From: an uncultured Gammaproteobacteria bacterium | GTDB taxonomy: Bacteria > Patescibacteriota > Microgenomatia > PFEM01 > JAPLYW01 | Direction: 5' to 3' | Length of the DNA: 64,000 nt | NCBI GenBank assembly: GCA_965230945.1 | Contig: OZ246397.1 | Span: 304,749 to 368,748, forward strand | Shown: positions 6,840-12,847 of the stretch, piece by piece | Layout of the letters: each line of letters begins with the position of its first letter | How positions within the stretch are numbered: the first letter of the stretch is position 1 | The notes under the pieces: generated by a model | Database searches by the model: none | Told to the model about the DNA's origin: nothing | Seen by the model: only the letters and a program-made list of their open reading frames with translations | Program-made: the position numbers and the translations under genes

Positions 6840-7937
6840 TTACTCTTTTTTCTTAGAACTCTTATCGGTCTTTTTATCTTTTTTCTTCTTATCTTTACTC
6901 TTTTTTACCTTTTTTACCTTCTCTTTCTTTTCTTTTTTTAATTTGCTTTTCTTTCTTTCCTGCTTTTTCACGGCAGTTTTCTGTTCATTAATATCAATCT
7001 TATAACCAGTCAATCTTACTGCCAATCTCACATTTTGCCCTTCCTTACCAATGGCCAAAGAAAGCTGATCTTCAGGCAGGGAAACAATAGCGGTTTTACC
7101 TTTTTCATTCACCTTTACCTTAATATTCTCGGCCGGAGACAAAGCCGCTATAATAAATTTTTCTATATCTTCGCTGTATTGAATAACATCAATCTTTTCT
7201 CCACCAAGCTCATTAATTACTGCCTGAACTCTAACTCCTTTTTGGCCTACACAAGAACCAACAGGATCAACCCCAGCTTGAGTAGAAAAAACAGCTACCT
7301 TGGAACGATTGCCGGCTTCCCGAGAAATTTCTTTTATCTTAACCGCCCCAGAAGCTAATTCAGGCACTTCTCGCTTAAAGAGACCTTCTACCAGCTCTTT
7401 ATCTGCTCTGGAAACTATTACTTGCTGGCCTTTGCCAATTTCTTCAATGCCTTTAATATAAAAGGTAAGTCTTTGGCCAATGTTGTAATTTTCTGAAGAA
7501 ACCTGTTCGATTTTTGGCATAACGGCTTCGGTACGATCAACATCAACAATAATATTAGGACCATCAAAACGAATAATGCGACCATTAACCAGACTGCCAA
7601 TTCTCTTAGAGTACTCTTCTAAAACAGAAGATTTTTCTGCCTCTCTAATTTTTTGAATCAAAACCTGTTTAGCTACCTGAGCGGCAATGCGGCCAAAATC
7701 CGGCGGAGTAACTTCCTTTTTACCGTCTTTTAAGGAGAAGATGTGAGTTTCACCTGTTTCCTGATTAATCTCCACTTCATATTCTATCTCTTCTTCAGCA
7801 CCATAGTCACGACGATAGGCGGCCAATAAGGCCTCCTTAATAGAGTCGATGACTACCTCTACCTCAATACCATGTTCAGCACAAATCTGATTTAAGGCTG
7901 AGGCAAATTCGGTTCTTGCTTTTTTAATAGCTGCCAT
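6840..7937 (-). CDS. nusA: transcription termination/antitermination factor NusA with a lysine-rich C-terminal tail
   Basis: NusA N-terminal domain, S1 and two KH regions ('GAVKIKEISREAGNRSKVAV', 'GVDPVGSCVGQKGVRVQAV'). C-terminal K-rich tail. Confidence 0.95.
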   Translation of the reverse strand: MAAIKKARTEFASALNQICAEHGIEVEVVIDSIKEALLAAYRRDYGAEEEIEYEVEINQETGETHIFSLKDGKKEVTPPDFGRIAAQVAKQVLIQKIREAEKSSVLEEYSKRIGSLVNGRIIRFDGPNIIVDVDRTEAVMPKIEQVSSENYNIGQRLTFYIKGIEEIGKGQQVIVSRADKELVEGLFKREVPELASGAVKIKEISREAGNRSKVAVFSTQAGVDPVGSCVGQKGVRVQAVINELGGEKIDVIQYSEDIEKFIIAALSPAENIKVKVNEKGKTAIVSLPEDQLSLAIGKEGQNVRLAVRLTGYKIDINEQKTAVKKQERKKSKLKKEKKEKVKKVKKSKDKKKKDKKTDKSSKKKE

Positions 7938-7954
7938 TCTTTTCTTCCTTATCT

Positions 7955-7975
7955 AAAAAGGTGGGGATCCCCACC
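7955..7975 (-). terminator. Leader hairpin/attenuator candidate. A perfect 16-bp palindrome GGTGGGGATCCCCACC followed, on the minus strand, by TTTTT, about 20 nt upstream of the nusA start.
   Basis: Seen directly in the sequence. A sigma70-like promoter (minus strand -35 TTGACT at 8029-8034, -10 TAAAAT at 8006-8011) lies just upstream, which would put the hairpin in the nusA leader. Confidence 0.5.
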
Positions 7976-8005: not shown

Positions 8006-8034
8006 ATTTTAGCAAGAAGGAGTAAAAAAGTCAA
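8006..8034 (-). promoter_or_regulatory. sigma70-like promoter candidate for nusA-infB (TTGACT-17-TAAAAT on the minus strand)
   Basis: Hexamers and spacing read off the sequence. No experimental support. Confidence 0.35.
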
Positions 8035-8088
8035 TCAAAATTAACCGAGTGATCTTTTTATTTTCCCCAAAACGAAAGTATATAATTT

Positions 8089-8122
8089 AGCTCCCCATCG
8101 TGGACGATGTTCGGACTAGTTT
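8089..8122. repeat. Copy A of a 34-bp direct repeat, agctccccatcgtggaCgatgttcggactagttt. It overlaps the stop codon of the HD-domain gene.
   Basis: Second copy at 9397-9436 with one mismatch (C/T). Both lie immediately 3' of minus-strand genes. Confidence 0.8.
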
Positions 8123-8694
8123 ATTTCTCGCTCTCTTTTAGCTAGTTCTTTGTTAAAAATGATTCTTGCTGTCTTTGTATAAAATTTATTTCCTTTCCTA
8201 ACATCATAATTCTCCTTAGGAGTTATCTCATACTGCCCTACATCTTCATAAAAAGGCTCCTTAAAGGTGTCAGATAAAGTATCTGCATCAATGAGCAATC
8301 TTTTGTTTAAATTTCGAGGATTTTTAAACTTATGAGCCAGCATGACACCAATTATTTCTTTTATTTTAGCCTTATCGTATTTAAGGCTACTCAAAATCTC
8401 TTTAGCGATTGGCGGACAATATTTTAGGTGTAATTCTAAGGCTTTCTTAGCCTTGGATCCTCTCATTATCTTTTGCAAGCTTAACGGAACTTTAGACCAA
8501 CCCGTATCATGTAAAATAGCCGCAGGTATCAAAATATCTTCATCGCCTCTTTCTTTTTTCAGCAACATCTCCATACTCTTAACCACCCATTTAGTATGCT
8601 TAACAAAATCTTTCTTTTTTCCTTTCTTTAAAAATAGGGTTGCTTTCCGAAGCATTTCAACATAAATTCTTTTCATATCTCCCAATTCTAACAT
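8116..8694 (-). CDS. HD-domain phosphohydrolase
   Basis: 'IPAAILHDTGW' HD motif. 192 aa. Confidence 0.8.
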   Translation of the reverse strand: MLELGDMKRIYVEMLRKATLFLKKGKKKDFVKHTKWVVKSMEMLLKKERGDEDILIPAAILHDTGWSKVPLSLQKIMRGSKAKKALELHLKYCPPIAKEILSSLKYDKAKIKEIIGVMLAHKFKNPRNLNKRLLIDADTLSDTFKEPFYEDVGQYEITPKENYDVRKGNKFYTKTARIIFNKELAKREREIN

Positions 8695-8702
8695 AGAAAA
8701 AC

Positions 8703-8725
8703 AAAAAAGCCGCCTTTAAGCAGCT
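8703..8725 (-). terminator. Rho-independent terminator candidate on the minus strand, downstream of the AAK-like gene
   Basis: agccgc-N6-gcagct stem, 5/6 bp paired, followed on the minus strand by a T-run. Shares the 20-mer aaaaaagccgcctttaagc with the groEL terminator. Confidence 0.45.
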
Positions 8726-8837
8726 CTCTTAAAAAAGAAGTCAAGAATTAATTAGGTTGACAAAGAAAACTTGTAATTTTTGCAAAGTCTTTCTCTACAA
8801 CCTGATTAATTAGATATCGTCCTTAGGCGACAATTGA

Positions 8838-9305
8838 TTAAGCTTTAAATTCCACCACTTGTACTTTTGGATAGGGCGCAAAGAATTTCTTTTTTTTGGC
8901 AGCTCTCTGGCAAGTGGTAACAATATATAAAACATCAAAGCCATGATAAGCGGCGAGTACAAACTGGTCGCCGTTGACATGACAAAGAACACTACCAATA
9001 TCAAGTACAGGAATAATAACAGTTACGTGTGTTCCTATCTCGTTTAAGCGATCTTGAATTTCTGCTTGATTCTTTTCCAATATATCGCGCGCTAACTGTC
9101 TTTCTTTGAAGCTACTTGCCTCGCGACCCAACGGTCCGAAATCATCCACGGGTAAATCTGCCTTCGTAAACGCTTCATTGATTTGTGTTCCTCCTCCGAC
9201 ACACACTACCACAAAATACCTTTGACTTAACTTTTTAATCCATTGGAGCACATCATTATTAAACATGTCGCCAGAAACCTTCACCAGACAATTTTTTCTT
9301 GACAT
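8838..9305 (-). CDS. truncated amino-acid-kinase (AAK) fold-like protein
   Basis: 'LVKVSGDMF' and 'VVVCVGGG' resemble the AAK N-terminal motifs, and the C-terminal 'VNGDQFVLAAYHGFDVLYIVT' resembles the AAK C-lobe. Only 155 aa, so the middle of the fold is missing. Local GC by hand count is about 44%, against about 35% in the flanks. Confidence 0.5.
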   Translation of the reverse strand: MSRKNCLVKVSGDMFNNDVLQWIKKLSQRYFVVVCVGGGTQINEAFTKADLPVDDFGPLGREASSFKERQLARDILEKNQAEIQDRLNEIGTHVTVIIPVLDIGSVLCHVNGDQFVLAAYHGFDVLYIVTTCQRAAKKKKFFAPYPKVQVVEFKA

Positions 9306-9396
9306 TATCTTTTTTCCTTTCTCTAGTGGTAGATTTATTTTAACATAATAAAAAAGCCTTAAAATAGGACCTTAGGAAGAAAAATCAGATGTCTGG

Positions 9397-9436
9397 AAGC
9401 TAGCTCCCCATCGTGGATGATGTTCGGACTAGTTTG
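9397..9436. repeat. Copy B of the 34-bp direct repeat, ending 3 nt before the stop codon of the HIT gene
   Basis: gctagctccccatcgtggaTgatgttcggactagtttgg. See copy A. Confidence 0.8.
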
Positions 9437-9439
9437 GCC

Positions 9440-9892
9440 TTACAATTTAATTTTCAGATTGGCAATTAGCTCTTTTTTCTCTCCTGATTTTGATTCGTAG
9501 CGTATCTTTTTGTCAAAAATGTCTTTAATAGTTTGCCAATCTGTTTGTTTCTTTAGTGGATAAATATGGAAATGAAAGTGGGAAACTAAACCTCCGGTTT
9601 TTAATACCACCGATTTGTCAACCCGCAGAACCTCAAGAAGAGCTTTTTCTGTTCTATGAAATATTCCTGAAAAATACTTGAAGTCTTCAGTCGATAATTC
9701 AGAAGCATTTTCAAAGTGCTCTTTCCAAACAACTAGAGTGTGGCCTTTTACGGCCCAGTCCATATCAAGCATTACCAAAACTTTATCATCTTCATAAATC
9801 ATGTCTTCGGCAGTTTTCTTCTCGGCAATAATTTTACAAAAGATACAGCTGCTCATCAGCTTTATTATACCAAACCAAAAAAGCCCTATCAA
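9440..9892 (-). CDS. HIT-family (histidine triad) nucleotide hydrolase. The start is probably an internal Met.
   Basis: 'CIFCKII' N-terminal motif and 'SHFHFHIYP' histidine triad. Confidence 0.85.
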   Translation of the reverse strand: MIGLFWFGIIKLMSSCIFCKIIAEKKTAEDMIYEDDKVLVMLDMDWAVKGHTLVVWKEHFENASELSTEDFKYFSGIFHRTEKALLEVLRVDKSVVLKTGGLVSHFHFHIYPLKKQTDWQTIKDIFDKKIRYESKSGEKKELIANLKIKL

Positions 9893-9902
9893 AAGGGCTT
9901 TT
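9875..9902 (-). terminator. Rho-independent terminator downstream of dnaJ (aagccct-atcaaa-agggctt, flanked by A/T runs, so it could act in both directions)
   Basis: 7-bp perfect stem seen in the sequence, followed on the minus strand by TTTTTTGG. Confidence 0.6.
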
Positions 9903-10001
9903 AAAAATCATTGCTCCGTCGGTAGGACTCGAACTTCTTCCCTTTTTTATTTTGGGATTTTTGGGATTTAAGAAACAAACTTAAAAGACAGCTTTACGTA
10001 C

Positions 10002-10930: not shown

Positions 10931-12847
10931 TTATTCAACAACCTCTCCTTCCTCTGCTTTCTCTTTATCCTTACTCTTATCGTCTTTTTCTTCCTTTTTT
11001 CCAGAAGCTCTTTCTTTTGGTTGTTCTTCTTTATTTGGAGCCTGCTGTTGCCGATACATAGCTTCTCCAATTTTTTGAAGATTATCAGAAAGCTCTTTAG
11101 AAGCTTTCTCTAATTCTTCTTTCGAAGAATCTTCTTTAGCTAAAACTTCTTTTAGTTTTTTGATTTCTTTCTCAACCTTTTCTTTGTCTTCTTTCTTAAC
11201 CTTATCACCAGCATCCTTTAGGGTCTTTTCAGCCGTGAAGACCAGATTATCAGCTTGGTTCTTAGCTTCAACCGTTTCTTTCTTTTTCTTATCTTCCTCG
11301 GTATATTTCTCAGCCTCAGCTCGAGCCGTTTTAACTTCTTCATCAGAAAGGCCAACAACTCCTTTAATGGTGATTTTTTGCTCTTTATTGGTAGCCTTAT
11401 CTTGAGCTTTAACAGTTAAAATACCGTTGGCATCAATATCAAAGTGAACCTCAATCTGGGGTACACCTCTTGGCGCTGGCGGGATTCCATCGAGAAAAAA
11501 ACGACCTAATGATTTGTTGTCAGCGGCCATCGGCCGTTCTCCTTGCAAAACATTAATTTCTACCTGTGTCTGATTGGCAGCCGCCGTAGAAAAGATCTGA
11601 GACTTGGAAGCAGGAATGGTCGTATTCCTCTCAATCAAAGGAGTACGAACCCCTCCTAAAGTCTCAATGCCCAAGGTTAGGGGAGTGACATCAAGAAGCA
11701 AGACATCTTTAACTTCACCGCCTAAGACACCACCTTGAATGGCCGCTCCCACAGCTACTACTTCATCCGGATTAACGGAACGGTTGGGAGTTTTACCAAA
11801 AATGTCTTTGACTATTTGAACAATCTTTGGCATCCGCGTCATGCCACCCACCAAGATAACCTCATCCACATCAGCGGCCTTAATCTTGGCATCCTTTAAA
11901 CAAAGTTCAACCGGCTTTTTAGTTTCTTGAATTAAATCAGAAACAAGTTGTTCCAACTTAGACCTACTAAGCTTCATAGAAAGATGCAGCGGTTGGCCAC
12001 CCTTACCCTGAGTAATATAGGGCTGGTTGATATCTGTCTCTTGAGCCGATGAAAGCTCAATTTTAGCCTTTTCAGCGGCATCACGAACTCTTTGCAAAGC
12101 CTGTTTGTCCTCCCTTAAATCAACTCCATTTTCTTTTTTAAATTCGTCGGCAATCCAATCAACAATTTTTTCATCAAAGTCATCTCCACCAAGATCGGTA
12201 TTCCCATTGGTAGCTTTGACTTCAAAAACACCATCACCAATCTCTAAAATGGAGATATCAAAAGTACCTCCGCCTAAATCATAAACGGCAATCGTTTCCC
12301 CGCCTTTCTTCTCTAAACCATAGGCTAAAGAAGCAGCTGTCGGCTCATTAATAATGCGTTCTACTTTCAAACCAGCAATTTCACCGGCTTGTTTGGTAGC
12401 CTGACGTTGGGCATCATCAAAGTAAGCTGGAACAGTAATTACCGCCCTCTCTATCTTTTCACCTAAAAAGGCTTCCGCATCTGCCTTGCATTTGCCTAAA
12501 ATTTTGGCAGAAATTTCCTGAGGAGTACATGTTTTACCGCCAGCTTCTACCACAACCATGCTTTCTTTACCTTCTTTAATCTTGTAGGCCACCATTTTCT
12601 GAGTTTTTTTAACTTCCTCATCAGAAAATCTACGACCCATTAATCTTTTTACTGAATAAATAGTATTTTCAGGGTTAAGAACCATCTGTCTCTTAGCCAC
12701 TTCACCGACTAAATTCTTAATTGGCTCTACAGCTGAAGGAATAATATTTTTACCTTCGGCTGAAGGAATTACCTTAGGTTTACCAGCCTCCATAACGGCC
12801 ACACAAGAATTAGTTGTTCCTAAATCGATACCAATAATTTTTGACAT
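10931..12847 (-). CDS. dnaK: molecular chaperone DnaK (Hsp70)
   Basis: '[14 protein letters not shown]', 'DLGGGTFD', '[11 protein letters not shown]'. 638 aa. Confidence 0.97.

Follow-up and report, generated by a model that had tools for sequence, protein, structure and literature searches.

A stretch of 64,000 nucleotides of contig OZ246397.1 (assembly GCA_965230945.1; called the window below), which NusA homologues put within Candidatus Shapirobacteria (Microgenomates), raises the question of why the same 34-mer, AGCTCCCCATCGTGGAYGATGTTCGGACTAGTTT, stands twice on its forward strand, at 8089-8122 (copy A) and 9402-9435 (copy B), each time at the end of a gene. The answer that we propose, and to which we give about an even chance, is that the 34-mer serves as a boundary or attachment site for small cassettes, most of them with a single gene, that are lined up behind a tRNA gene, all in the same orientation, in bacteria of the candidate phyla radiation (CPR). 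The pair itself, already described in an earlier note on this DNA, was confirmed: the copies differ at a single position (position 17, C/T), their likeness breaks off sharply at either end, and no such pair was found in 100 dinucleotide-preserving shuffles. They lie 1313 bp apart from start to start, with a gap of 1279 bp, and a Hamming scan allowing up to 12 mismatches and a profile of the family revealed no third copy in the 64-kb window. On the minus strand, which is the sense strand of the genes in this region, the core of element A (8090-8117) reads AGTCCGAACATCGTCCACGATGGGGAGC and lies within a profile match at 8069-8124 (E 1e-15), whereas that of element B (9403-9430) reads AGTCCGAACATCATCCACGATGGGGAGC, with a G-to-A change in the inner stem that recurs in one of the collected loci (L048, position 4579). 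Element A is the last, nusA-proximal site of the window array. As noted earlier, copy A contains the stop codon of an HD-domain gene, whose TAG (8116-8118) overlaps the 5' edge of the core, and copy B lies close to the stop of a HIT-family gene, but 4 nt before the TAA at 9440-9442 and not 3 nt as had been counted.

The search for more copies that the earlier note had suggested yielded many outside the window, a result in favour of mobility. An exact-pattern scan of one genome per species detected the core in 4 CPR genomes, while five further matches in high-GC genomes were discarded as chance matches without flanking similarity. A separate scan of metagenome contigs gave 39 contigs with the core, 12 of them carrying two or three co-oriented copies, and the scan of the viral_contigs set gave 0 matches. 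The identical 34-mer is present in a contig labelled Saccharibacteria, and a variant, AGTCCGAACATCCTCCACGATGGAGCTCCA on the gene-sense strand, occurs in Peribacteria, Gracilibacteria, and Peregrinibacteria. Under a stricter definition, profile and regular-expression searches together brought the family to at least 84 core copies at 42 loci, in 76 distinct contexts, mostly on Microgenomates/Shapirobacteria metagenome contigs; the profile search added many copies, often diverged, with six each in L045 and L048 and five in L026. Arrays contain up to 6 copies spaced by 342-1702 bp, and all copies are co-oriented, none of the 42 loci having cores on both strands. Contigs of 446 kb, 101 kb, and 81 kb hold one exact core match apiece, and the other 62 kb of the window are without a copy. 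Since the copies sit in one co-oriented array per contig, the core is not like a repetitive extragenic palindromic (REP) element, which had been one of the readings considered at the outset.

These arrays are anchored to tRNA genes. Wherever a locus extends far enough upstream, the array starts immediately behind a tRNA gene of the same orientation. The gene is tRNA-Asn(GTT) in L029, L039, L043, and L045, where rpoD is located just upstream of it (preceded by dnaG in L029 and L043), and tRNA-Gly(TCC) in L001 and L037, whose arrays are of the variant type; the hosts are split into Microgenomates/Shapirobacteria, using tRNA-Asn(GTT), and Gracilibacteria and Peribacteria, using tRNA-Gly(TCC). The core follows the same division. 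Its left 22 nt are constant across phyla, whereas its last 5-7 nt are those of the 3' end of the local tRNA: the end GGGGAGC matches the tRNA-Asn end CCGGAGC or GGGGGAGC, and the variant end GGAGCTCCA matches the tRNA-Gly end CCCGCTCCA. What core and tRNA have in common is GGAGC (Asn), GGGGAGC (Asn of the L029 type) or GCTCCA (Gly); outside these letters the core bears no relation to the local tRNA.

The same cassette can start after either kind of left neighbour. In L043 the tRNA-Asn gene, ending in CCGGAGC, is followed immediately by AACGGTTTTTAGCTTCAATTTTGG and then by a NUDIX cassette; in L048 the identical 42 nt and the NUDIX cassette come after a core ending in GGGGAGC, with two more cassettes upstream. 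Similarly, in L037 a stretch of 24 nt, GCTCCAAGCTCTTATTAAGGGCTT, is common to the end of tRNA-Gly and the end of the element, and the four kinds of trailer found after tRNA-Asn genes all recur after cores. Only 5-7 nt are common to the left of these junctions, which is too little for RecA-type recombination and argues for site-specific joining immediately after GGAGC rather than for homologous recombination. We also observed genes of GIY-YIG nucleases (Pfam, E 1e-17) next to the array-heading tRNA-Asn in L029 (8290-8589) and L045 (4578-4952), one after the tRNA and one before it. They were considered as a mobilising nuclease and rejected, as they are not consistently present, being absent at the equivalent place in L039 and L043.

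Units are gained and lost at the cores, as seen when the units between cores were clustered by blastn. Whereas L021 has unit F2 followed by F4, L047 has F2, F18, a 1136-bp unit (u3), and F4; L018 and L026 have F5 followed by the flank, and L040 has a 549-bp unit between F5 and the flank. Before the conserved flank F1, the last unit differs among four contigs.

The units, of 0.35-1.7 kb, contain one small non-recombinase open reading frame (ORF) apiece. A sense ORF ends no more than 150 nt upstream of 73 of the 87 core copies, and 14 of these 73 ORFs end with the TAG that the edge of the core provides. Together the 73 ORFs represent 58 families without relation to one another, with Pfam matches to Fic, UDG, NUDIX, GNAT, HD, HIT, Vsr, the metallo-beta-lactamase fold, and domains of unknown function (DUFs). 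No integrase or transposase appears among the 25 cassette ORF families listed with their Pfam matches, and the earlier note had rightly remarked that none is visible. A coding role of the repeat itself was rejected because the two types of core differ by a 2-nt indel and the repeat is placed after stop codons. Two paralogous 250-aa ORFs (MELHF(L/I)G(A/T)AHNDPEAYNRT...) lie at 166-918 and 4779-5531 of L001, in one Peribacteria array region, one of them directly upstream of a core, and a related ORF is encoded at 3699-4385 of L037, a Gracilibacteria contig.

Read in the sense direction of the genes, the conserved core is AGTCCGAACATCG-TCCA-CGATGGGGAGC, mostly with AACT in front of it, which gives AAC TAG. 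When folded, it pairs GUCC with GGA-C in an outer stem that bulges one G, leaves GAA/G unpaired, and forms an inner stem from CAUCG and CGAUG. On a kept CATCG...CGATG base, this inner stem bears a tip of 4 to 57 nt that comes in at least four forms: the 4-nt TCCA, which is found in 63 of the 76 contexts; a 30-nt insert resembling a tRNA T-arm plus acceptor strand; a hairpin ACACT..AGTGT of about 26 nt; and a 57-nt insert. This kept base with a variable tip is the sole structural support for the core hairpin.

Downstream of GGAGC there are recurrent but heterogeneous trailers. In trailer T1, TAGCTTCAGAA precedes a strong intrinsic terminator, T2 contains a promoter-like pair TTGACT...TATTAT, and T3 is CATCTTTCGCCAAGG; further types are less frequent. 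Core and T1 together may be nearly identical between units over up to ~70 nt, and in 14 of the 76 contexts a promoter-like trailer takes the place of the terminator. Upstream, a TTGCCTAAATTT box is located 6 nt before the AAC in about a third of the copies, often right after the terminator of the upstream gene. The earlier note had pointed out that no U-run directly follows the hairpin, and this is true of both window copies; the core hairpin is thus not an intrinsic terminator by itself, and the strong terminator of the family consensus is a separate hairpin some 12 nt further on, in T1; behind copy A this hairpin is missing, and behind copy B it is degenerate.

The element matches no Rfam family at the gathering or E<=10 thresholds, either in the window region or in the loci with long variants, and ARAGORN called no tRNA or transfer-messenger RNA (tmRNA) at any core copy, short or long. 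When the long variant was compared by BLAST with phages and plasmids, a 25-nt stretch proved similar (23/25) to the part of a phage tRNA-Lys that runs from its anticodon stem to its T-loop/T-arm, and plasmids gave no match. In addition, the right half of the core agrees with the 3' end of tRNA-Asn at 14 of 17 positions. By its sequence, the site probably arose from partial-tRNA attachment (att) sequences.

How the window locus fits the family can be read from its gene order, dnaK, dnaJ, HIT, a 155-aa ORF, HD, nusA, and infB, all on the minus strand, to which all the features that follow belong. Directly after dnaJ there is a 3' remnant of tRNA-Asn (9912-9934; GTTCGAGTCCTACCGACGGAGCA) comprising the T-loop, the 3' strands of the T-stem and the acceptor stem, and G73, identical at 20 of 23 positions to the tRNA-Asn(GTT) heading the arrays of L039, L043, and L045. 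The 5' part is lacking, so that no complete tRNA is present at the remnant, and neither ARAGORN nor Rfam called one there. An intrinsic terminator (9879-9902) follows at the position where genuine tRNA-Asn genes have their trailer terminator, overlapped by a promoter-like site (9864-9892; TTGATA-17-TATAAT preceded by TG) that stands before the first cassette gene. This gene encodes a HIT-family hydrolase (9440-9856; 138 aa from the ATG called in L049). Core B comes next, with a trailer (9320-9402) that is a degenerate copy, with an insertion of about 20 nt, of the T1 of the family (TAGCTTCAGAA and terminator hairpin), and then ATTATGTTAAAATAAATCTA, the promoter region of the 155-aa gene, kept in L039. 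The second cassette gene (8838-9305) encodes the 155-aa protein and is separated by an intrinsic terminator (8702-8731) from the third (8116-8694), which encodes the 192-aa HD-domain protein (Pfam HD, E 9e-6) and takes its stop codon from element A. Right after the array, the conserved chromosomal flank begins with the nusA promoter (8006-8034; TTGACT-17-TAAAAT preceded by TG). The array thus consists of two units, HIT and the 155-aa gene plus HD, between dnaJ and nusA, and is a short, orphan form whose head tRNA is truncated.

The contents of the segment between the two copies had been described as the HD gene, a terminator, and a truncated AAK-like gene of raised GC content. The first two stand, and the third does not. 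The 155-aa protein has no Pfam match, and its gene is not truncated, because a full-length 155-aa homologue exists in L039, within a tRNA-Asn array and with a decayed core and the same promoter in front; both genes share 76% nucleotide identity, promoter region included. Its GC content reaches a maximum of 0.43, equal to that of nusA and dnaJ (0.40-0.44), and is therefore not anomalous.

The comparison with relatives, another check that had been suggested, shows a clear break of synteny. In relatives with 77-85% NusA identity the interval between dnaJ and nusA is hypervariable and holds wholly different genes: a 4.7-kb set with a kinase in L034, HicAB, SNase, and others in L053, five other genes in L055, helicase and ATP-grasp genes in L051 and L057, and about 10 kb of small ORFs in L058. 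Downstream of nusA, synteny between the window and the relatives is complete. The nusA promoter is found at the equivalent position (TTGACTTCAAGG...GTTAAAAT) after the variable interval in L034, L053, L055, and L058, and just before it a core is present in L034, L058, and L053, intact or decaying, the terminal cores next to nusA being those that decay in L053 and L058.

Some of the genes in this variable interval deserve a separate mention. In L034 (1461-4517), the kinase is a Ser/Thr protein kinase (Pfam, E 7e-33) with same-strand neighbours of 390 and 280 aa without Pfam match and, upstream on the opposite strand, another 280-aa ORF without Pfam match; this could be a defence-type module. 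The array of L053 includes a HicB-HicA toxin-antitoxin pair and an SNase-domain gene (7362-7835), and in L057 an ORF for a LAGLIDADG_2 homing endonuclease (10974-11942) splits a Lon-like AAA gene from a UDG gene, which are adjacent in other relatives. On the other side of the boundary, downstream of the nusA promoter and ahead of the start codon of that gene, the window contains a GC-rich hairpin with a U-run, GAGGTGGGG(n3-4)CCCACCTTTT (7948-7975, minus strand), that is also found in all the Shapirobacteria relatives examined, that is, L034 (5275-5305), L053 (~9960-9990), L055 (~9950-9985), L057, L058, and L059. It resembles an attenuator or a terminator in the leader of nusA-infB, and Rfam gave only weak rimP-leader-like matches near it. 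In L058, a tandem duplication of about 50 nt (AATAAGAACCTGTCGAAACGACAGAACCTTGTTTCTCG twice, ~9870-9995) lies between this hairpin and the nusA start codon.

If the 34-mer is a cassette boundary, a cassette would begin immediately behind one core and finish with the last letter of the following one, and would be made up of a trailer with a terminator or a promoter, usually one ORF, and a core. A putative recombinase acting in trans would join it immediately after GGAGC, the left partner being the tRNA 3' end or an existing core; new cassettes would be inserted there and older ones pushed downstream, much as in the reaction of integron attC with attI. Homologous recombination between near-identical cores and trailers would additionally delete or swap units. 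Site-specific recombination, the exact crossover point, and a dedicated enzyme are what we infer, since no recombinase was found and base pairs do not covary. Two other kinds of site were set aside. A target-site duplication was rejected because many copies have unrelated flanks; of the earlier suggestion of a duplicated target or attachment site, the attachment part survives, whereas a one-off duplication caused by insertion of the AAK-like gene does not agree with a core that recurs at least 84 times at 42 loci in several CPR phyla, each time as a boundary of small cassettes. A dif/Xer-like site was put aside as well, as the core lacks what we take to be the conserved XerD arm, TTATGTTAAAT.

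Several observations weigh against this proposal. In the L021/L047 pair, one single-nucleotide polymorphism places the crossover inside the T1 trailer, and therefore ordinary homologous recombination explains at least some of the shuffling. Motifs of tyrosine or serine recombinases were not found in the collected loci or the window by a regular-expression search, which is not exhaustive, and no recombinase appears among the Pfam matches listed for the cassette and flanking ORFs inspected. The core hairpin shows no base-pair covariation, with one double change that shuffled controls equal, and diverged copies turn CGATG into CGAGG, CTAGG or TGAGG with no compensating change. The loci were gathered by exact match to the core, so that its conservation is partly an effect of ascertainment. 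Finally, many genes in the long arrays of L053 and L058 have no recognisable core.

Part of these data could be accounted for by recombination without any dedicated recombinase, if core and trailer were passive portable homology, and at the same time a hairpin/terminator module of the 3' untranslated region (UTR), with cassettes exchanged, deleted, and duplicated by natural transformation and RecA-type recombination between repeats of 30-100 nt. The near identity of core plus T1 over up to ~70 nt, the crossover within a trailer in L021/L047, the lack of matches to recombinase motifs, and the terminators and promoters included in the repeated flanks are all in line with this explanation, which we nonetheless judge unlikely: it leaves unexplained that one cassette can start after a tRNA 3' end or after a core with 5-7 nt in common on the left, that from phylum to phylum the 3' end of the core varies with its partner tRNA, and that its 22-nt left part is nearly invariant between Microgenomates and Gracilibacteria/Peregrinibacteria. 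The site could also work at the RNA level, as a tRNA-derived, acceptor-like 3'-UTR hairpin or a small RNA with a TAAATT promoter box and a terminator, which would undergo RNase P/Z-type processing or stabilise the mRNA 3' end and would spread with accessory genes. Its orientation is always that of the upstream ORF, whose stop codon it often overlaps, the T1 trailers are strong intrinsic terminators, the TAAATT box is found 8-10 nt upstream in 33 of the 76 contexts, like in the 5' flank of the L029 tRNA-Asn, and both the long variant (phage tRNA-Lys, anticodon stem to T-arm) and the 3' end (tRNA-Asn acceptor end) resemble tRNA. Yet the stems decay uncompensated and do not covary, ARAGORN and Rfam found no match, and a promoter-like trailer instead of a terminator follows the core in 14 contexts, and such a function does not predict the confinement to hypervariable, tRNA-anchored arrays or the gain and loss of units at cores, so that we rate it as quite unlikely.

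Alternatively, the cores might be inert scars, i.e., partial-tRNA att repeats left by successive integrase-carrying islands that entered at the tRNA gene, as in tycheposons or the Dehalococcoides ssrA islands, and have since decayed to single genes. The arrays do adjoin tRNA genes, the window has a partial tRNA-Asn, the core holds tRNA-like pieces, the cores at the nusA side decay in L053 and L058, and successive integration that pushes older elements inward has been described for tycheposons (10.1101/2020.12.28.424599). But a spacing of 0.35-1.7 kb needs dozens of independent islands, each decayed to about one intact gene, the motif search gave no sign of integrase fragments, and the repeat copies the local tRNA over 5-7 nt only; moreover, one identical 28-mer is found in many samples next to genes of 58 families that are not related, which is more in line with a site that is still used than with scars. 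This origin of the cores is very unlikely in our opinion. As for a chance match or a purely local duplication within one genome, for which it could be said that just two copies exist in the 64-kb window, we regard it as refuted: none is expected by chance, and the identical 34-mer recurs in the Saccharibacteria-labelled contig and, between flanks that are unrelated, in dozens of metagenome contigs.

Among known systems, the architecture of these arrays is closest to that of integron attC arrays, and the concept closest to the build-up of islands targeted to tRNA genes, as in tycheposons; the arrays belong, however, to neither class. Like integrons and CALINs, which are clusters of attC sites without integrase, they are made of co-oriented, mostly single-ORF cassettes with a very diverse cargo, each with an ORF and one site at the 3' end of the ORF, often overlapping the stop codon (no locus on two strands; 73 of 87 sites). 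The imperfect hairpin also resembles attC in its outer and inner stems on either side of an unpaired centre, its bulged bases, and its terminal structure, whose length varies, although covariation does not support it here, and the junction at the outer edge of the hairpin gives a pattern consistent with insertion at a proximal primary site. In contrast with integrons, the role of primary site falls to the 3' end of a tRNA gene, the arrays have no IntI or attI (a motif search that is not exhaustive gave no tyrosine-recombinase box II in any locus) and start after rpoD and then tRNA-Asn, or after tRNA-Gly, and many cassettes have a promoter or terminator of their own. IntI is required for a complete integron and not for a CALIN. 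Nor does the site follow the R''/R' consensus of attC (RYYYAAC...GTTRRRY, crossover between G and TT): the core ends in GGAGC, and the forward-strand sequence after the ACTAG edge varies (AGTTGGGT, AGTTACTC, AGTCTAGA, AGCTGGGT), only some of these fitting GTTRRRY. While attC sites are conserved in structure and not in sequence, the core of 28-34 nt is near-identical between phyla.

With the tycheposons of Prochlorococcus (10.1101/2020.12.28.424599) and the ssrA islands of Dehalococcoides (PMC3146451) the arrays share a streamlined host genome, a variable island directly 3' of a same-strand tRNA gene, repeats related to the tRNA 3' end, and a tandem build-up of units in which older ones are apparently pushed inward. 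Those elements, however, are several kb long and have their own tyrosine or serine recombinase, whereas the units described here have about one gene and no recombinase was seen in them; and their repeats are exact partial tRNA copies of ~20-48 nt, whereas the core, which is no exact copy of ~20-50 nt of the 3' part of a tRNA, shares 5-7 nt and otherwise has its own sequence. REP elements, bacterial interspersed mosaic elements (BIMEs), and miniature inverted-repeat transposable elements (MITEs) are also short, palindromic, and intergenic repeats at gene 3' ends, but the core is not dispersed, all its copies are co-oriented, and it has no terminal inverted repeats or target-site duplications. 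The ends of HUH transposons (IS200/IS605 and palindrome-associated transposable elements, PATEs; 3' ends of IS91 and Helitron) have a subterminal hairpin a few nt before a fixed end, which would be GGAGC here, and such elements insert in a fixed orientation by a short matching target, which could give tandem co-oriented arrays. The left ends of the units are, on the contrary, heterogeneous and without a conserved left-end hairpin, and no TnpA or Rep gene is seen, though no search aimed at HUH enzymes was evaluated. No description of the element was found in the literature on integrons and attC, cassettes, and tRNA-linked islands in Patescibacteria/CPR.

CPR genomes are about 1 Mb in size, and to our knowledge these bacteria have few recognisable mobile elements and no cultured genetics. 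Many of their genes have been acquired horizontally (PMC12455944). We tentatively suggest, at rather less than an even chance, that the CPR bacteria (Microgenomates, Gracilibacteria, Peregrinibacteria, and Peribacteria) may possess an undescribed gene-capture system, analogous and yet unrelated to integrons, in which single-gene cassettes with a folded site of ~30 nt mimicking a tRNA 3' end would be inserted by a non-IntI recombinase encoded elsewhere, right behind the last nucleotides of a tRNA gene, giving rise to the main hypervariable locus of these small genomes. A tRNA-anchored cassette site would provide a concrete mechanism and a searchable marker for the accessory gene pool of CPR bacteria, marking the variable locus of each genome, and the 28-nt core can be used as a bait in the search for the recombinase, by phylogenetic profiling or binding assays. 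Should the enzyme turn out to be new, integron-like gene capture would have been invented twice, independently, and the enzyme might become a tool for site-specific integration. Even if it is merely an RNA or homology module, the core would still be the most widespread conserved non-coding element found here that links these phyla.

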